A DNA stretch of 64,000 nucleotides from Candidatus Omnitrophica bacterium UBA6253 (GCA_002441245.1 DJVP01000001.1:1215-65214), one strand, 5' to 3'; counted from the first letter of the stretch, positions 1,498 to 19,615 are shown. Notes: generated by a model from the sequence alone, not told the origin. Numbers and translations: made by a program.

Positions 1498-1570
1498 GGG
1501 GCTGTAGCTCAGTTGGGAGAGCATCTCGTTCGCAACGAGGGGGTCGGGAGTTCGATTCTCCCCAGCTCCA
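1498..1570 (+). tRNA. tRNA-Ala (anticodon CGC)
   Basis: A hand-folded cloverleaf gives acceptor GGGGCTG/CAGCTCC with the G3:U70 alanine identity pair. The anticodon loop is TTCGCAA and the T-arm is GGGAG TTCGATT CTCCC. The 3' CCA is not encoded. Confidence 0.85.
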
Positions 1571-1597
1571 CTTAAAAAACCCTGCTGGTTTCTTAAC

Positions 1598-5937: not shown

Positions 5938-6200
5938 TGCCGCAAATTATTTGGGGAGGGCAAACCGGTTGTTTGTTGCCGTCTCTAATTATTTTTAATC
6001 TTTTATTCGGTAGGGCAATCTTTAATTCAACCTATATTTGGTTGGGTGTTGAGGCGGCGCTTATATTTATATTCATTATTAAAATTCATGTTTTTGCGCA
6101 TAAAATTCGTCAACAACTTCGCCCAGAAGGCCGCAAACCTTATGGCAGGGTGGTTGATGTAGAGGGAAAGGTTGTCGAAGAGAAAAGTAAGTTAAAGTGA
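5937..6200 (+). CDS. small hypothetical membrane protein
   Basis: The ORF has one or two hydrophobic helices and a lysine-rich tail. Its ATG overlaps the preceding TGA as TGATG. No family was recognised. Confidence 0.3.
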   Translation: MPQIIWGGQTGCLLPSLIIFNLLFGRAIFNSTYIWLGVEAALIFIFIIKIHVFAHKIRQQLRPEGRKPYGRVVDVEGKVVEEKSKLK

Positions 6201-6313
6201 ACCTGGGTAATTTTTGTTGACAAGTATTACAGTTATGTTAGCATATTCTTTAATTTTAAAAAATTATAAAGTGGTTAAAATTAACTAATGTTTTTGAAAG
6301 GAGTAGAGTAAAA

Positions 6314-8413: not shown

Positions 8414-8530
8414 GCTTAAGTAAGGATCAGGGGCGTTTATATTTTTTCAGGTTAATTACGGAAAAATAGAAACGCCCTGTTATTTTATCAACCTTAAGGG
8501 TGTCTCCTTAGTGAGGCGGGGCCATCCGTA

Positions 8531-8557
8531 TTTCTTTGTTTGACAAAGTTTTTTTAG
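8531..8557 (+). promoter_or_regulatory. sigma-70-type promoter upstream of the ECF sigma gene; the mRNA may be nearly leaderless
   Basis: TTGACA at 8531-8536 is followed by a 15-nt spacer and TATAAT at 8552-8557. The ATG at 8574 lies about 8 to 10 nt from the predicted start site, and there is no Shine-Dalgarno sequence. Confidence 0.4.
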
Positions 8558-8573
8558 TGATATAATTATAGCT

Positions 8574-9185
8574 ATGGACGACTTGAAGTTTGTCCAAGCT
8601 TGCGTCAAAGGGGACAAACAATCCTGGAATGAATTCCTTTCTCGTTATTCCCGCCTGATTTATAACTATATCTATAGCGTTTTGGCCGTAAAAGGTTACA
8701 ATCTTGCAGTAGAACAAATTGAAGATATCTTTCAGGAAATATTTTATTCTTTAATTAAGGATAATTATAAGAAATTAGCTACCTATCAGGGGAGAAATGG
8801 TTGTTCTTTAGCCAGTTGGCTCAGGCAGGTTACGATCAACTTTACTATTGATTATTTGCGTAAACTCAAGCCAATGGTTTCAATTGATGTTGAGGTTGAG
8901 CCGGGATTTAGCCTGAAGGATATACTTAAGGACCTCTCGGCAGATGCGGTTGAGTTCTTAAGCGATCAGGACAGGCGTAAAACCCTTCAGGAATGCGTTG
9001 ATTTACTTGATTCAGGCGAGCAGTATTTTATGGAGCTATTTTTAAATCAGGGGTTAAGCCTGGAGCAGATTAGGGAATATCTTAAGATTAACCGTGGAGC
9101 AGTAGATATGCGAAAGGGAAGAATATTTCAGAAATTACAGGATTGTTTTAAAAAGAAAGGTTTTAAGTTAGATTTTCTGAAATGA
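8574..9185 (+). CDS. ECF-type RNA polymerase sigma factor (sigma-70 regions 2 and 4)
   Basis: A region-2-like segment (FLSRYSRLIYNYIYSVL...IEDIFQEIF) and a C-terminal region-4 helix-turn-helix (LSLEQIREYLKINRGAVDMRKGRIFQKL) are present, and the 203 aa size fits. Confidence 0.7.
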   Translation: MDDLKFVQACVKGDKQSWNEFLSRYSRLIYNYIYSVLAVKGYNLAVEQIEDIFQEIFYSLIKDNYKKLATYQGRNGCSLASWLRQVTINFTIDYLRKLKPMVSIDVEVEPGFSLKDILKDLSADAVEFLSDQDRRKTLQECVDLLDSGEQYFMELFLNQGLSLEQIREYLKINRGAVDMRKGRIFQKLQDCFKKKGFKLDFLK

Positions 9186-9212
9186 TACGTCTATTGGTAT
9201 AGGAGAGGGTAT

Positions 9213-9917
9213 ATGCTTAGCCATTTTGAGTGGGTAGCCAGGGTTATTTACCGGGAATGGAAAGGTTCCAGCCAGTCTATTGATCGAGGTCATCCAAGCG
9301 AGGAAATCCTGGTTTGTTTTCTTGAGGATAAGCTTGCTCAGCCAGAAAAGGATTCAATCCGTGGACATCTGCTTAAATGTGATATATGCGCGGAGTATTT
9401 AAGTACTCAGCTTAAGATAGAGCCGCATTTAAGCAAAGATATCCCCGTTCCTTTGCTAGAGAAAATCAGGAAGGTTATCGGCAATAATATCAAGGATAAT
9501 ATATTTAAAATATTTCTCAAACTTAAAGAAAAATCTTTTGAAATTATTGAAACAAGCGGGGATGTGCTTGTAGGCCAGGAGTTAATCCCTGCGCCGGTTT
9601 TACGTAGCCGGCAGATAAATGAGTTTAAAGAAGAACTGAGTATCCTAAAAGATTTGCAAGAGGTCAGAGTTTTGGCCAGGGTTGAAAGTAAGAACAGCAA
9701 AGTTTTTAACCTCTTTATTACTATTAAGGATAAGCAGGGCAAGGGAATTAATAAAGATTTACGGATTACACTTATAAGGGATGGAGTTGAATTAGAGTCT
9801 TATATTTCAGATGCGGAAAATAGCGTTTTTGAAAACATTTCGCCTGGTAATTATAGTGTTGAAGTTACAGATAAATCGGGTTTACTCGCGGTAATTGACC
9901 TTAAAGTCAGGTCCTAG
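9213..9917 (+). CDS. putative zinc-binding anti-sigma factor (ZAS-like HxxxCxxC) with a C-terminal beta-rich domain
   Basis: The motif HLLKCDICAEY is H-x3-C-x2-C. The gene sits immediately downstream of the ECF sigma gene. No TM helix is evident. The C-terminus (NISPGNYSVEVTDKSGLLAVIDLKV) looks like a carboxypeptidase-regulatory/Ig-like beta-sandwich. Confidence 0.45.
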   Translation: MLSHFEWVARVIYREWKGSSQSIDRGHPSEEILVCFLEDKLAQPEKDSIRGHLLKCDICAEYLSTQLKIEPHLSKDIPVPLLEKIRKVIGNNIKDNIFKIFLKLKEKSFEIIETSGDVLVGQELIPAPVLRSRQINEFKEELSILKDLQEVRVLARVESKNSKVFNLFITIKDKQGKGINKDLRITLIRDGVELESYISDAENSVFENISPGNYSVEVTDKSGLLAVIDLKVRS

Positions 9918-9922
9918 CCTTT

Positions 9923-12121
9923 ATGCCCCAGCCTGAAAAGTTGATCTTAGAGGTATTTAATCAGGGCGATTCACTTAAGATGGGTTTATTTGATCAGGTG
10001 CAATCCGCTCCTACTTTGCGGCACTACAGTTTAGTTACGGTATCTTTTGCCGAGTTAATAAATTTAAGTACAGATTTAATTGAGGTCTTAAACCGTCCTG
10101 CCAAAGATGAATTATCTAAAATTAACCAGTTAAAATCCCTGCAAAAAATAGGTCAGTTATTCTGGGATCATCTGCTCGGCCGTTCAATTAAGGAAAAGCT
10201 TAAAAATAGCCCGCCTTGCGTATTAACCCTTTCCCTGGATGAAGAGTTAATTTATATGCCTTGGGAACTAATTTTTGACGGCGTGAATTTCCTTTGTCTT
10301 AAATTTAGCTTAGGAAGATTAGTGCGTAGCAAAGGTGATTTGGCCTTGTTGCAATACCGTGATTTAACAGAGCGCTTAAAAATGTTGATTTTGGCTGATC
10401 CAAACGCAGATTTAAAATCCGCTTATGCAGAAGGCCTGAATATTAAGAATCAATTTAACCATAAAACCAGGAAGGTATATGTTGATTTTAAATCAACTAA
10501 TATAGATAAAACCTATGTTAAAAAGAATATTTGTGATTATGATATCGTACATTTTGCCGGTCATTGCGAATTTGACAGAAAAAATATCCAGCGAAGCGGT
10601 TGGGTTTTAAGCGACGGATTGTTTAAGGTGGAGGATGTCCTCAAGATGGGGCAGGGCTGCAGTATGCCGGCCTTAGTTTTTTCTAATGCCTGTCATTCTG
10701 CCCAGGCCAGTAGCGGATTAATTGATTTAGAATACCAGAGGGCAAGCTATGGCATGGCCAGCGCATTTTTGTTTGCAGGAGTAAGGCATTATGTCGGTAC
10801 AATCCGTAAGATTGAAGATAATCCCAGCCTTGTATTTGCCAGAGAATTTTATACGCAGCTTATTTTCGGAGTAAGCGTAGGTGAGTCGTTGCGCTTATCA
10901 AAGCTGAAGTTGATAAAACAATTCGGGCTGACTAGTTTACATTGGGTAAATTACCTTCTTTATGGAGATCCCAGCTTTGTTTTTTTTAGGTTCCAACGCC
11001 GCCGCAAAGAGCGCAAAAATAAACCGCCTGCTTTTTATAAAAAAGTTATGATTAAGTCCGCACTGGCAGCAGTTTTTATCTGTTGTAGTATTTTTTTGAT
11101 TTCGTGGCTGCCCAAGCTTAACCCTGGGAAGTTTTACCTGTTTCTTAATTCACAGGCAGAATACCGTAAGGGGAATAATGAGTCTGCGATAGTATCAGGT
11201 GAGAGGCTTATTGGAAAAGATCAAAACTTTTTAGCGGTCTATCCGATAATCGCAAATGCTTATCAGCGTCTGGGTAATAAAGATAAGGCCTTAAGATATT
11301 ATTTTGATTATGTGCTTAAAAGCGAAGGGGCAAATAATAAGAGGCATCTTATCCGGGCTTATATAAAACTGGGCTGGTTTTATCAATTGGATGGCCAATA
11401 TACTAAAGCACAAGAGTTATATAATAAGGCGATAAAATTAAGCCGGCTGGTGAATGATAAGCCCAGTGAAGCAGTGGCTTTAAGAAAGTTGGCTGTTTGG
11501 CATATAGATAAGAATAATCTTGGAGAGGCCTTGGACCTGTTGACTAAAAGTATAGCGATTAATTTAGAACATCAACGTAATTTTGAAAACGCCAGGAACC
11601 TGGCATGTGATTATTTTGATATTGGTTTGGTATTTGCCAATAAAAACGATTATGTTGCGGCAAGGGATTTCTACGAAAAAAGCCGTAAAATCTTTGAACG
11701 GTTAAATTTAAAGAATGAGTTAAGTGATTGCTATTTTAATTTAGGTGAAGTTTATCTTTATGAAAAAGAGTATAATAAGGCGTTGGATTATTATTTTAAG
11801 GGGATAAAGATAGATCAGCGGCAAAATAACAGGGTAAACTTAGTCTGCGGTTATAATATGATTGGTGAGCTATACATGGAAATTGATGATCTGTCTAAGG
11901 CTGAAGCATATTTTAAGGATTCCGCTAAACTGGCAGAAGAGATTAACAGTCGTATAGACCTTGCCAGTGTTAACTACAATTTGGGCCTGTTGTATAAGAA
12001 GCGGGGGAGAAAGAACATGGCCAGGCAGCATTGGCGCAAGGCGCAAGAGATATACAGATCGATTGACTTTGATAAATACCAGGAGATTCGTAATCAGTTA
12101 CTGGAGCTGGATAACATTTAA
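9923..12121 (+). CDS. membrane-anchored protein with a CHAT-domain (caspase-like protease) followed by TPR repeats
   Basis: The CHAT His/Cys dyad motifs VHFAGHCEF and LVFSNACHSA are present. One TM helix (SALAAVFICCSIFLISWLP) follows, then at least six TPR-like repeats over residues 400 to 730. Confidence 0.7.
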   Translation: MPQPEKLILEVFNQGDSLKMGLFDQVQSAPTLRHYSLVTVSFAELINLSTDLIEVLNRPAKDELSKINQLKSLQKIGQLFWDHLLGRSIKEKLKNSPPCVLTLSLDEELIYMPWELIFDGVNFLCLKFSLGRLVRSKGDLALLQYRDLTERLKMLILADPNADLKSAYAEGLNIKNQFNHKTRKVYVDFKSTNIDKTYVKKNICDYDIVHFAGHCEFDRKNIQRSGWVLSDGLFKVEDVLKMGQGCSMPALVFSNACHSAQASSGLIDLEYQRASYGMASAFLFAGVRHYVGTIRKIEDNPSLVFAREFYTQLIFGVSVGESLRLSKLKLIKQFGLTSLHWVNYLLYGDPSFVFFRFQRRRKERKNKPPAFYKKVMIKSALAAVFICCSIFLISWLPKLNPGKFYLFLNSQAEYRKGNNESAIVSGERLIGKDQNFLAVYPIIANAYQRLGNKDKALRYYFDYVLKSEGANNKRHLIRAYIKLGWFYQLDGQYTKAQELYNKAIKLSRLVNDKPSEAVALRKLAVWHIDKNNLGEALDLLTKSIAINLEHQRNFENARNLACDYFDIGLVFANKNDYVAARDFYEKSRKIFERLNLKNELSDCYFNLGEVYLYEKEYNKALDYYFKGIKIDQRQNNRVNLVCGYNMIGELYMEIDDLSKAEAYFKDSAKLAEEINSRIDLASVNYNLGLLYKKRGRKNMARQHWRKAQEIYRSIDFDKYQEIRNQLLELDNI

Positions 12122-12137
12122 ATAATGAATAAAATTC

Positions 12138-12189
12138 TTGACAAATATTTTTTTTCAGTTATACTCTACTATGTTTATAGGGATAGTAG
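12138..12189 (+). promoter_or_regulatory. promoter plus inverted-repeat operator upstream of the Rrf2 regulator gene
   Basis: TTGACA at 12138-12143 is followed by a 16-nt spacer and TATACT at 12160-12165. Directly after it sits CTACTAT at 12166-12172, a 10-nt gap, and ATAGTAG at 12183-12189, a 7-bp inverted repeat overlapping the start site. Confidence 0.45.
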
Positions 12190-12205
12190 ACAAGAAGGAG
12201 AAAAG

Positions 12206-12646
12206 ATGAGGATTACTTACAAGGGTGATTATGCGCTAAAGGCACTACTGGATTTAGCGGTTCATTATGAATCAGGGGTATCTACGATTAATGATATTGC
12301 TAAGCGTATTGATGCCCCGGTAAAATTTCTTGAACAGGTTCTTCTGGATTTGAAAAAGGGAGGTTTTGTGGAGAGCAGGCGCGGCAATGTCGGCGGGTAT
12401 CATTTAGCCAAAGATCCGGTTAAGATTACATTAGGCCAGGTAGTGCGTTATATCGAGGGTCCGATAGAGCCCATTTCTTGTGTAGAAAAAGGCTACGCCA
12501 AATGCAGTGATTTGAGTTGTTGTTTGTTCAGGGGAGTTTGGCAAAAGGTAGCTAATGTTACTTCGGATATAATTGATAATGTTACTTTCGGCGATTTAGC
12601 TGGCCAATTTAACGCTAAAAAAGAAGTTTTTGCTTATTCAATTTAA
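12206..12646 (+). CDS. Rrf2-family transcriptional regulator (IscR/CymR-like)
   Basis: The N-terminus MRITYKGDYALKALLDLAVHYESGVSTINDIAKRIDAPVKFLEQVL is an Rrf2 wHTH. A Cys cluster (CVEKGYAKCSDLSCC) could ligate Fe-S. An AAGGAG ribosome-binding site lies 6 nt upstream of the ATG at 12206, and the track ORF starts earlier in the same frame. Confidence 0.75.
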   Translation: MRITYKGDYALKALLDLAVHYESGVSTINDIAKRIDAPVKFLEQVLLDLKKGGFVESRRGNVGGYHLAKDPVKITLGQVVRYIEGPIEPISCVEKGYAKCSDLSCCLFRGVWQKVANVTSDIIDNVTFGDLAGQFNAKKEVFAYSI

Positions 12647-16883: not shown

Positions 16884-17026
16884 TTTTTGACAATTTGGTA
16901 TTTTACCTAATGACAAAGGCTAACTAGCAGTAATGCTGGGGCGCAAAACTTCCGATCCTCTAAAAAGAGGAAAGCGGGGTTGCCAAGTAGGGGGAAACCC
17001 TAAAAGAAGCCTTTTAGGGTTTTTTT
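16875..17026 (+). ncRNA. candidate small RNA or structured leader of about 150 nt, bounded by a promoter and an intrinsic terminator
   Basis: No ORF of 60 aa or more lies here. Internal hairpins are present, for example CCTCTaaaaAGAGG. The region ends in the terminator at 16998-17026. Its identity is unknown, since no SRP, 6S or tmRNA signature was recognised. Confidence 0.25.
16998..17026 (+). terminator. rho-independent terminator
   Basis: A 9-bp stem (CCCTAAAAG with a 4-nt loop AAGC and CTTTTAGGG) is followed by TTTTTTT. Confidence 0.7.
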
Positions 17027-17239: not shown

Positions 17240-17503
17240 ATGCAAGATAATGGGGGGCAAGTTGTTACGCATAGAGTAATCACCATGCTAGGCCGGCAGG
17301 AAATGGATTATCTTGATAAATTGGGTAAAGATGCCCTATTCTCTACTGGTCATAAACTTTCCTACAATGATATCTTGCGAGGGCTGATTGATTTTGCTAT
17401 GGAAGCAGGGATATCCGGAGAAAAAATAGATTCAGCTGAGACTTTTAAGGATAGGTTATTACGCCAATTAAGCAGACAAGAGATTAAAAAAGGAGGAAAC
17501 TAA
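17240..17503 (+). CDS. small protein, possibly a ribbon-helix-helix DNA-binding protein
   Basis: AGGAGG lies 9 nt upstream of the ATG at 17240. The beta-strand-like VTHRVITML is followed by helices EMDYLDKLGKDA and KLSYNDILRGLIDFAM, consistent with a CopG/Arc-like fold. The track ORF starts at an upstream TTG. Confidence 0.3.
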   Translation: MQDNGGQVVTHRVITMLGRQEMDYLDKLGKDALFSTGHKLSYNDILRGLIDFAMEAGISGEKIDSAETFKDRLLRQLSRQEIKKGGN

Positions 17504-17925
17504 TGAAAAACCTGATTTTGGTTTTAAGCGTACTCGTATTAATCTTTGGTGGCCTAACAATTGGATATTGCTATGATAATGAGGCTGATGGTGAATATAC
17601 CTTTAATTCGCCTCCTGTAGAGATTGACCGTGATGAGATTCCTTATGGCAACTCTGCGATTAATAAGCTTGAGCGAGGGGTAATCAATATGGCTACGTTT
17701 TGGATGGAGATTCCTGCTGAAGTAGCTAAAGTTTCCAAGGAGCAGGACCCTGCGGCAGGAGTAACCGTTGGGGTGGTAAATGGGGTAATCACCAGTGCTA
17801 TACGCGGAGTGACCGCAATCTATGATACAGCTACTTTTCCCGTCCCTTCATATACTAAGCCGGCAATGAAACCGGAATATGCCTGGAAGGCAGCTGATGA
17901 TAAGATAAAAGCCTGGCTTTGGTAA
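17503..17925 (+). CDS. small exported hypothetical protein
   Basis: The N-terminal signal or TM segment is MKNLILVLSVLVLIFGGLTIGYC. The start overlaps the upstream stop as TAATG. No family was assigned. Confidence 0.4.
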   Translation: MKNLILVLSVLVLIFGGLTIGYCYDNEADGEYTFNSPPVEIDRDEIPYGNSAINKLERGVINMATFWMEIPAEVAKVSKEQDPAAGVTVGVVNGVITSAIRGVTAIYDTATFPVPSYTKPAMKPEYAWKAADDKIKAWLW

Positions 17926-17952: not shown

Positions 17953-17985
17953 AAGGCGTCCTTGAATAAAGGGCGCCTTTTTTTT
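17953..17985 (+). terminator. rho-independent terminator
   Basis: The stem pairs AAGGCG with CGCCTT around an internal loop and is followed by TTTTTTTT. Confidence 0.6.
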
Positions 17986-18031
17986 GTTAGATTCTTACGC
18001 CTCCAGCGTCAATTATGCCAGGAGGTGTAAA

Positions 18032-19615
18032 ATGTATAAAAAAATTATTAGTTTTACGATGGTTTGGTCAATAATTATGGCGAATGTTCTCCTGGCACAA
18101 GATTTTACCTGGGATGATATAAGCAGAGGCAACCACAATGCACAGGTACTTCTGGTTAATCCGCAGGATAGCAGGATTATTTTTGCAGGAATTGCCGGTA
18201 ACATATTGAAGAGTGATGATGCGGGTGAAAGTTGGCGCAGGGTATTAGCTGTTAGGGGCAGATTAAATAAAATCAATGCTTTGGTATTTGATTGTTCTGA
18301 CCGGAATATTGTTTATGCGGCTACCGATAATGGTTTATATCGGAGTAAAGATTTGGGTGAACATTGGGAAAGGATTTTCCTGGGCAAGAATAGCCTTGAG
18401 AAACAATGTGCCACTGTATTGGGCACTTTATGTTTTATTTTTGTCGGGACAAGGGCAGGGCTTTTTATAAGTAAAGATAACGGGCGGAGCTGGCGCAAGG
18501 AGAATGGCCATATCAGCAATGCTGTTGTGTTTAGTATTGATTTTAACTTTAGGCAGGATAAGGTTATTTATTTATCTGCTGATTGCGGTATATTTAAATC
18601 TCTGGATAAGGGTGAAAGCTGGGAGAGGGTTTTTGTAAGTTATTCCAATAAAGATGATGGGCAAATATTTGTTGATACCGAAGAGCCGGATGAATCAGGA
18701 GGGTTGTCTGGTATGGGTTTTATAAGGATTGATATTAATAATGCTGATTGTGTATATTTTTCCAGTTTAAGAGGAGTTTATAAAAGTTTGGATCAAGGAA
18801 GGTCCTGGGTAAAATTAACTGAATACGGTTTATTAAACCGTAACGTGAAGATGTTTTGCCTGTTGGCTGATTCACGGATTTTTGCCCTTACCCAGACAGG
18901 AGTTTTCCTTTATAAAAACGAACGCTGGACAGAGATATCTTTTGATTTGGCTGCAGGAGAATTGAATTATCTTACTTTAGATAATGAAGGTAATATTTAT
19001 GTTGCGGGCGAAAAGGGGATATTTAAAGCCAGCCAGAGAAGTGTTTATAGTATCTTGGGAGATGTTTTAGTACAGGAGTATCTTAAGCATGAGCCGAAAA
19101 TTAGGGATGTGCAGGAGGCAGCAATAAAATACGCTGAAGTAAATCCGGATAAGATATCGCAATGGAGGAGGATGGCGGCAAAAAAAGCGATATTGCCGCA
19201 AGTAAGTATTGGATTAGACCGTAACTCAACTGATCTGTGGCATTGGGAGAGCGGGTCCAGCGCTATCGGTCAGAGCGGAGATGATTTATTGAGGAGGGGT
19301 CGAGATAGTATAGACTGGGATATAACTTTAAGTTGGAATTTAGGCGAGCTTATCTGGAATGATGACCAGACAAGCATTGATGTACGTTCAAAGCTTATGG
19401 TTGAGCTGCGCGATGATATTTTGGATCAGGTAAATAAGCTTTATTTTGAGCGGTTGAGGGTGAAATCTGAACTGGATAACCTGTCTATTGAAGACAGGAA
19501 TAAAAGGTTTGATAAGCAGTTAAAACTGGAGGAGCTGACTGCTTCTCTGGATTCACTTACATCCGGGTATTATTCAGAGCAATCCAAGTTGATTATGTCT
19601 AAGAAACAGGATTAA
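18032..19615 (+). CDS. secreted BNR/Asp-box repeat protein with a C-terminal coiled-coil region
   Basis: A signal peptide (MYKKIISFTMVWSIIMANVLLAQD) is followed by five Asp-box repeats S-x-D-x-G-x-S/T-W: SDDAGESW, SKDLGEHW, SKDNGRSW, SLDKGESW and SLDQGRSW. A GGAGGTG ribosome-binding site precedes the ATG at 18032. Confidence 0.6.
   Translation: MYKKIISFTMVWSIIMANVLLAQDFTWDDISRGNHNAQVLLVNPQDSRIIFAGIAGNILKSDDAGESWRRVLAVRGRLNKINALVFDCSDRNIVYAATDNGLYRSKDLGEHWERIFLGKNSLEKQCATVLGTLCFIFVGTRAGLFISKDNGRSWRKENGHISNAVVFSIDFNFRQDKVIYLSADCGIFKSLDKGESWERVFVSYSNKDDGQIFVDTEEPDESGGLSGMGFIRIDINNADCVYFSSLRGVYKSLDQGRSWVKLTEYGLLNRNVKMFCLLADSRIFALTQTGVFLYKNERWTEISFDLAAGELNYLTLDNEGNIYVAGEKGIFKASQRSVYSILGDVLVQEYLKHEPKIRDVQEAAIKYAEVNPDKISQWRRMAAKKAILPQVSIGLDRNSTDLWHWESGSSAIGQSGDDLLRRGRDSIDWDITLSWNLGELIWNDDQTSIDVRSKLMVELRDDILDQVNKLYFERLRVKSELDNLSIEDRNKRFDKQLKLEELTASLDSLTSGYYSEQSKLIMSKKQD

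Follow-up and report, generated by a model that had tools for sequence, protein, structure and literature searches.

How would a sigma factor of the extracytoplasmic function (ECF) class be controlled when its presumed inhibitor is a soluble protein and the next gene encodes a caspase-like protease candidate anchored in the membrane? The question is raised by three adjacent genes in a 64,000-nucleotide (nt) stretch of DNA from Candidatus Omnitrophica bacterium UBA6253 (GCA_002441245.1 DJVP01000001.1:1215-65214), the whole of which is hereafter called the window. An exact-match protein carries the annotation Candidatus Omnitrophica, which places the DNA in the phylum Omnitrophota. Among the main means that bacteria have of carrying signals across the membrane are ECF sigma factors, and few mechanisms for their release are known. 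The three open reading frames (ORFs) lie on the same strand, tightly spaced, with gaps of exactly 27 nt between the sigma and middle genes and 5 nt between the middle and CHAT genes, reproducing the arrangement described in a first-pass annotation of this DNA. They are:

8574-9185, + strand: ECF-type sigma factor gene, 203 amino acids (aa)
9213-9917, + strand: middle gene, encoding a soluble anti-sigma candidate of the ZAS type, 234 aa
9923-12121, + strand: gene for a putative sensor-protease, with a CHAT domain, a transmembrane (TM) segment and tetratricopeptide repeats (TPRs), 732 aa

That these genes form one functional module is, on the evidence below, very probable. The fuller proposal, in which the CHAT protease cuts the anti-sigma protein and thereby releases the sigma factor, stands in our judgement evenly balanced between right and wrong.

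The case for a module begins with linkage. The neighbourhood comparison advised at first pass, made with one genome per species, covered 77 loci, essentially all from Omnitrophota, with middle-protein identities of 33-71%. Sigma, middle and CHAT-TPR genes occur together in 68 of them, or 68/69 of the evaluable loci, since contig ends truncate 8 of the other 9; the median gap between the middle and CHAT genes is 4 nt. The single evaluable exception is L066, in which no adjacent CHAT gene follows the sigma/middle pair. Here (L066:6294-9405) the next gene resembles the gene at window 17984-19615, their N-termini being similar by eye, and such a resemblance would suggest a deletion or rearrangement. 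The L066 middle protein has kept its zinc ligands, and the PAP of its linker has become AVS.

The module sits at a fixed position beside an H+-pyrophosphatase (PPase) gene across the clade, with no mobile-element context. This upstream gene is also syntenic in the main clade, so part of the main-clade linkage reflects vertical inheritance. On account of that possibility, 10 divergent relatives of the middle protein were sampled from other contexts. The triad is present in 10/10, Nitrospinota included, amid flanking genes unrelated to those of the window; the adjacent ECF-like sigma factors share 28-32% identity with the window's, and the CHAT domains 36-42%. The first-pass model was to be given up if this linkage proved not to be conserved; it holds within Omnitrophota and outside the PPase context, across changes in flanking genes, gene order and partner domain. 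The CHAT partners at the divergent loci are:

L078-L081 (Nitrospinota): CHAT-TM-Trypsin_2
L082: CHAT-TM-FlgO-TPR, its gene lying upstream of that for sigma in a changed gene order
L083 and L088: CHAT-TM only
L084: CHAT-TM-helical domain
L085: CHAT-TM-CsgG/LpoB-like
L086: CHAT-TM followed by two F5/8 type C (discoidin) domains
L087, L089 and L090: CHAT with TPR arrays of other lengths

The catalytic dyad and the TM segment after CHAT are retained in 7/7 aligned divergent variants, and the outside domain varies. A constant cytoplasmic protease combined with swappable outside domains is the pattern expected of a sensor family. Almost universal in one Omnitrophota clade, the family occurs in Nitrospinota and other lineages too.

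Some neighbours of the divergent modules deserve mention in their own right. The same uncharacterised gene set, including small helix-turn-helix-like proteins, follows both CHAT-TM-only variants (L083:7149-10629 and L088:3001-6427), and this common block may be mobile. Downstream of two other divergent modules (L087:4319-5021 and L090:5725-6461) are runs of 3-4 small genes encoding peptides of 45-71 aa that bear signal peptides and are rich in His, Gly, Tyr and Arg; these could be regulon members or unrelated neighbours.

Beyond linkage, the parts of the module have changed together. Among all pairs of distance matrices compared over 43 loci, the closest correlation is that between the middle protein and the CHAT domain (r=0.92). 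Controlling for PPase leaves a partial r of 0.81, higher than that of the CHAT domain with its own TPR domain, with the proviso that PPase has a much slower rate of evolution than the module, which inflates partial correlations.

The sigma factor belongs to the ECF class, as assigned at first pass: the protein scores 68 bits against TIGR02937 (sigma70-ECF; cut-off 42.9), and Sigma70_r2 matches at E=7.8e-7 and 29.2 bits against a Pfam cut-off of 24, with a weak r4 match of 15.8 bits. Its best match in the PDB is SigW (E=1.7e-6). Against NF041236 (CAS_III-E_sigma, the type III-E RpoE-like model) it reaches 30.9 bits, far under the cut-off of 100.

For the family of the middle protein, clustering at 90% identity gives 374 clusters and clustering at 50% gives 686; nearly all members are of 225-245 aa and match end to end. 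Three regions can be told apart along its length:

9291-9389, + strand: putative zinc site H27-x24-H52-x3-C56-x2-C59, from conservation of the ligands
9549-9635, + strand: conserved linker motif TSGDVLVGQELIPAPVLRSRQINEFKEE, residues 113-141, from column conservation
9645-9914, + strand: C-terminal beta-sandwich, Ig-like or CarboxypepD_reg-like

H27, H52, C56 and C59 are each at least 97% conserved among 74 species-level sequences, and they fit the ZAS ligand pattern H/C-x(23-26)-H-x3-C-x2-C. Divergent relatives have Cys as first ligand, the classic H/C ligand swap of ZAS proteins. The zf-HC2 model (PF13490) scores sub-threshold on the window copy, 12.5 bits against a gathering score of 22.2 (E=0.17). 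It matches 14/18 close family members at E<1 and rises above the Pfam cut-off in 4/10 divergent homologues (23.4-29.1 bits); two relatives carry the NCBI name "zf-HC2 domain-containing protein". The ZAS identity rests on the invariant H/C-x24-H-x3-C-x2-C arrangement together with the homologues above cut-off, and in this form the first-pass domain call stands, although the window copy taken by itself would not have carried it. Neither the middle protein nor any of 6 divergent homologues has a TM or other hydrophobic segment, in agreement with what had been said of the window copy, and with an anti-sigma protein that lacks one no site-2 proteolytic step is implied. As a separate observation, Pfam FtsK_alpha gives weak matches in 14/18 members of the middle-protein family, the best at E=0.014.

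The best-conserved segment of the middle protein is the linker that joins its two domains, with a mean column conservation of 0.83 over the 74 sequences; the ZAS core has 0.59 and the beta-sandwich 0.62. A core of the form T-x-G-[DE]...P...h-R is retained in relatives at 22-28% identity, and R131 is the best-conserved basic residue of the segment. AlphaFold2 (AF2) gives the linker a predicted local distance difference test (pLDDT) value below 50 in the isolated protein, that is, predicts it to be disordered. Substrate or docking motifs are usually disordered in isolation. The linker may be where the CHAT protease docks or cuts.

The third protein carries the remaining elements:

10145-10969, + strand: CHAT domain (PF12770; clan CD, caspase-like), predicted to be cytoplasmic
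10562-10564 (H214) and 10691-10693 (C257), + strand: catalytic codons, in the motifs HFAGHCEF and SNACHS
11039-11116, + strand: single transmembrane helix, residues 373-398 (Kyte-Doolittle peak 2.44; AF2 helix)
11132-12106, + strand: predicted extracytoplasmic TPR array of about 8 repeats (TPR_12), a putative ligand or peptide sensor

Hidden Markov model searches recover both assigned domains: PF12770 at E=3.9e-26 and 92.6 bits (cut-off 24) over residues 75-349, spanning model positions 2-289 of 289, and TPR_12 at E=1.5e-31 over approximately residues 404-728. The first-pass annotation had further described an intact His/Cys dyad and had staked its model on the conservation of that dyad. H214 (in HFAGH) and C257 (in SNAC) are invariant in 60 full-length orthologues and in the 7 divergent variants, and such constancy of the dyad and the motifs around it speaks for selection on catalytic activity. 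A profile of the CHAT domain alone finds solved CHAT proteins marginally, 8tl0 at E=0.017 and 8rot_B at E=0.81, the latter being a 991-aa chain of the same length as DdvA.

The placing of a single TM helix between CHAT and a TPR array on the far side of the membrane is likewise upheld. The protein's one hydrophobic segment lies at about residues 375-393; its position is conserved among orthologues, and AF2 models it as the helix 373-398. This helix and the TPR array are both modelled confidently (>90). No N-terminal signal peptide is present in the CHAT protein. Over the 60 orthologues, the 20 residues before the helix hold on average 7.4 Lys plus Arg, compared with 2.7 in the 20 residues after it. 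This excess on the CHAT side indicates an N-in topology, by which CHAT is predicted to lie in the cytoplasm together with the soluble middle protein, and the TPR array to be extracytoplasmic. The TPR fold is nearest to peptide- or ligand-binding TPRs, namely those of Rap, NprR, PlcR, AimR, MalT-III and LGN.

How the operon is expressed bears on how its products could be balanced. Two features upstream of the sigma gene frame the start of transcription:

8430-8487, + strand: intrinsic terminator of the upstream PPase gene, a hairpin and a U-rich tract
8540-8566, + strand: housekeeping-type promoter, with TTGACA at 8540-8545, a 15-nt spacer and an extended -10 element TGaTATAAT at 8558-8566

The terminator, a hairpin of -22.6 kcal/mol (z=-5.2 relative to shuffles) with a U-rich tract after it, sets the 5' boundary of the module's transcription unit. 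The TATAAT box occupies 8561-8566, with the TG at 8558-8559, and ends 7 nt from the sigma ATG, so the sigma mRNA is predicted to be effectively leaderless. The box and the near-leaderless transcript had both been recognised at first pass; the distance given then, about 17 nt, was wrong. A perfect TATAAT lies 6-9 nt 5' of the conserved ATG in 64/72 orthologous loci and the TG extension is present in 57/72; the sigma start M(D/N)DL.F is conserved across the 72. Two loci with a longer leader instead carry Shine-Dalgarno-like sequences. Among the 54 large ORFs of the window the sigma gene alone has this near-ATG TATAAT layout. As a trait of the whole family the leaderless layout is ruled out, since only the PPase-linked clade shows it.

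Autoregulation from an ECF-type promoter is typical, though not obligatory, for ECF sigma genes. No -35/-10 pair of the ECF type was seen 5' of the present one, the sole conserved element there across the 72 orthologous loci being TGnTATAAT. With a housekeeping-type promoter the operon looks constitutively expressed and not autoregulated, and to speak of autonomous regulation, as was done at first pass, adds nothing. The middle gene has an AGGAG Shine-Dalgarno sequence of its own. The CHAT gene lacks such a sequence; with its start only 5 nt beyond the stop codon of the middle gene, it is probably translationally coupled to that gene. Taken together, the operon would be transcribed constitutively by the housekeeping sigma factor, from the extended -10 promoter, as a leaderless mRNA on which sigma would be translated without a Shine-Dalgarno sequence, the anti-sigma protein with a good one, and the protease apparently in coupling to the anti-sigma gene. 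Such an arrangement of translation signals would favour an excess of inhibitor over sigma.

The mechanism proposed for these parts would run as follows. In the resting state, the soluble middle protein would hold the ECF sigma factor through its N-terminal ZAS domain, and the sensor-protease would be a single-pass membrane protein with its TPRs outside the cytoplasm and its CHAT domain inside. Binding of a ligand, possibly a peptide, to the TPR array would pass a signal across the membrane and switch on the CHAT protease, which would then cut the anti-sigma protein in the conserved linker, possibly after R131. Destabilisation of the ZAS fragment would free the sigma factor for transcription of its regulon. 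Generalised to the family, this would amount to a new, one-step transmembrane class of ECF control: sensor-caspases with a constant cytoplasmic CHAT domain and interchangeable inputs, cleaving a soluble ZAS anti-sigma protein at its linker and bypassing site-1 and site-2 proteolysis. We put this class forward tentatively, giving it slightly less than an even chance.

Several points pull the other way. Sigma binding is inferred from motif, homology and gene position, as cleavage, its site, the ligand and the regulon are inferred too. Searched as a profile against PDB sequences, the middle protein returned no solved anti-sigma domain, only a chance hit at E=0.16. A class I ZAS domain is a helical bundle that binds sigma-2 and sigma-4 of its cognate sigma factor; the AF2 helices of the ZAS part here (residues 30-37, 43-55 and 57-66) reach pLDDT values of 54-73, a weak N-terminal model. 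AF2 also models the CHAT half too poorly (pLDDT 26-77) to speak for a complete active site. The conserved linker could instead bind sigma, RNA polymerase or another partner. To these are to be added the L066 locus, the share of linkage owed to vertical inheritance and the inflation of the partial correlations, all described above.

Other readings of the same genes must be set beside this one. The middle protein might be a pseudosubstrate inhibitor or adaptor of CHAT, its linker occupying the active site, with the real substrate being sigma itself, the CHAT protein (by autocleavage) or another protein. A conserved extended linker and middle/CHAT co-variation fit an inhibitor as well as a substrate. 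Precedents exist on both counts: separase, a relative of CHAT, is controlled in this manner by securin, according to work cited in PMC11506125, and PCaspase cleaves a sigma factor directly, according to the account in 10.1101/2023.06.23.546230. Yet the invariant ZAS zinc motif and a gene placed directly after that of sigma point to a sigma-binding role, and in both of the nearest functional precedents it is the inhibitor that is cleaved and not the sigma factor; we consider this securin-like arrangement unlikely. Less likely again is non-proteolytic tethering or partner switching, in which the CHAT-TM protein would hold the middle/sigma complex at the membrane and a ligand would alter affinity without any cleavage. 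Co-variation and linkage by themselves need no catalysis, but the His/Cys dyad and its motifs are invariant in the 60 orthologues and in all divergent variants, which makes a catalytically idle CHAT domain very improbable as an explanation.

Conceivably, the middle protein could also act by itself as a thiol or zinc sensor resembling RsrA or ChrR, with CHAT-TPR a co-transcribed output or accessory and not the trigger. The H/C-H-C-C ZAS class does include redox-sensing anti-sigma factors such as RsrA and ChrR, but redox sensing is confined to some ZAS proteins. The ZAS of DdvA has been discussed as a possible target of reactive oxygen species (PMC11506125). In the present family, however, the best-conserved part is the linker and not the zinc site. 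The CHAT partner is kept in 78/79 contexts with its outside domain swapped, which is the behaviour of a sensor and not of an effector, and the housekeeping-type promoter implies that CHAT is not a sigma-dependent output. An independent redox switch is accordingly improbable, somewhat more so than the inhibitor reading. Finally, since known CHAT/sigma circuits are linked to defence and the sigma factor weakly matches the type III-E RpoE-like model (30.9 bits), the locus could be thought an anti-phage defence or abortive-infection module with CHAT as the death effector, analogous to CRISPR-linked CHAT systems. That score is, however, far under the cut-off of 100; PADLOC gave no hits except generic TPR; the 64-kb window holds no CRISPR array or repeats; and the module occupies a fixed chromosomal site beside the H+-PPase gene without a mobile-element context. 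A defence function therefore seems the least probable of all these readings, with very little to recommend it. Cleavage of the anti-sigma protein by CHAT remains the best supported of these readings.

The genes flanking the module in the window are housekeeping genes. The PPase gene was considered as a target of the sigma factor and is ruled out, having its own housekeeping-type promoter, long leader, Shine-Dalgarno sequence and terminator. That promoter, TTGACA...TGtTAACAT, is conserved about 110 nt 5' of the start in L001-L036 (window approximately 6200-6313), and the leader of about 70 nt with its GAAAGGAG Shine-Dalgarno sequence is kept across the clade. Downstream of the module lies an Rrf2 regulator gene with a promoter-like site of its own at 12138-12165. 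Its longest ORF (12125-12646) probably begins 27 codons too early: Rrf2 orthologues are 146 aa long, and the promoter-like site (TTGACA-16-TATACT) falls inside the extension. Farther along, a c-di-GMP-I riboswitch at 16908-16987 on the + strand (RF01051; 66.6 bits, gathering score 35) sits 5' of small ORFs and of the gene for a 140-aa secreted protein (17503-17925), after which comes that for a 543-aa secreted repeat protein (17984-19615). A tRNA-Ala (CGC) gene is found at 1498-1571 (+). Over the window as a whole (1-64000), gene orientation is completely uniform, all 54/54 non-overlapping ORFs of at least 150 aa being on the + strand, and GC skew is positive in every 2-kb bin of the 64 kb.

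Were the cleavage mechanism true, its interest would extend beyond this locus. It would be a compact one, in which a single membrane protein both senses and cuts and the caspase-like domain is cytoplasmic. The CHAT/anti-sigma/sigma logic of CRISPR type III systems would then also serve ordinary envelope signalling, and its swappable outside domains and short conserved linker would make the module a scaffold from which sensors could tractably be engineered. For the uncultured phylum Omnitrophota, whose core genome apparently includes the module, it would be a first point of entry into regulation.

The first-pass annotation had not recognised this arrangement as a characterised ECF mechanism. 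That was overstated, as Craspase, CalpL/CalpT/CalpS and DdvA all provide precedents. A literature search of incomplete coverage, with ECF Hub group models outside the comparison, found no paper describing the present split triad. In Craspase, the TPR-CHAT protease Csx29 cleaves Csx30 between its domains and so relieves inhibition of the ECF-like CASP-sigma (PMC10028731). The predicted module shares with it a TPR-bearing CHAT protease and a soluble two-domain inhibitor of an ECF-like sigma factor. The trigger differs: target RNA bound by Cas7-11 in Craspase, a predicted extracytoplasmic TPR domain acting across the membrane here. So do the layout of the protease, since Csx29 is cytosolic with its TPRs N-terminal to CHAT whereas here they follow the TM helix, and the inhibitor, which is Csx30 in one case and in the other a ZAS zinc-finger protein that is not Csx30-like (no PDB sequence match). 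The window sigma factor also falls under the cut-off of the Craspase sigma model NF041236 (30.9 versus 100 bits), and no type III-E context was seen, there being no tandem repeats in the 64 kb and no PADLOC Cas hits with which a Cas7-11/gRAMP association could be made. A second cytoplasmic precedent comes from type III CRISPR systems, in which CalpL cleaves the anti-sigma factor CalpT and releases CalpS (as summarised in 10.1101/2023.06.23.546230). From that summary, the likeness lies in a dedicated cytoplasmic protease that cuts a soluble anti-sigma protein to free an ECF-type sigma factor, and the difference in the protease itself: CalpL is a SAVED-Lon protease, CRISPR-linked and activated by cyclic oligoadenylate, in place of CHAT and a membrane sensor.

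Among membrane systems, the structurally characterised DdvA/DdvS pair of Myxococcus xanthus combines an ECF sigma factor with a fused anti-sigma protein composed of ZAS, TM and periplasmic TPR-CHAT parts (PMC11506125). Trans-autocleavage of DdvA followed by intramembrane proteolysis by RseP has been proposed; its CHAT domain is without the three-helix motif, and DdvA-like proteins are reported only in Myxococcota and one Comamonas species (PMC11506125). The two systems have in common an ECF sigma factor, a zinc-binding ZAS and a single-pass membrane protein that bears both CHAT and TPRs. DdvA, however, is one polypeptide with the ZAS inside and TPR-CHAT outside, whereas here the ZAS is separate and soluble, CHAT is predicted to be inside and only the TPRs outside; and where an RseP step is proposed for DdvA, no site-2 step would be needed here. 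The classical pathway of RseA/DegS/RseP and RsiW differs as well. There a membrane-spanning anti-sigma factor is cleaved by site-1 and then site-2 proteases, whereas here it is the protease that spans the membrane and the anti-sigma protein that has no TM segment, so that the locus was rightly set apart from the classical cascade.

Genomic links between ECF sigma factors and CHAT or caspase proteins have been reported before. ECF54 of Actinobacteria is one (PMC8999054). Kaur et al. (2021) described another in EACC2-caspase neighbourhoods with ECF sigma factors, where the caspase proteins have variable C-terminal domains (PMC8195603). Proteolytic control has been proposed for such links. The main text of the ECF classification paper makes no mention of CHAT. 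ECF54 is ruled out as the home group of the present sigma factor, being actinobacterial and described as without an anti-sigma factor; EACC2 has C14 caspase domains and DUF1822 TPR proteins, unlike the CHAT-TM-TPR protein here. Neither is described with a partner built of ZAS, linker and beta-sandwich. Set among these systems, the module family could be the non-CRISPR relatives of the Craspase-type CHAT/inhibitor/sigma circuit, and the module itself is plausibly a non-CRISPR, split, transmembrane variant of CHAT-protease-gated anti-sigma/ECF circuits.

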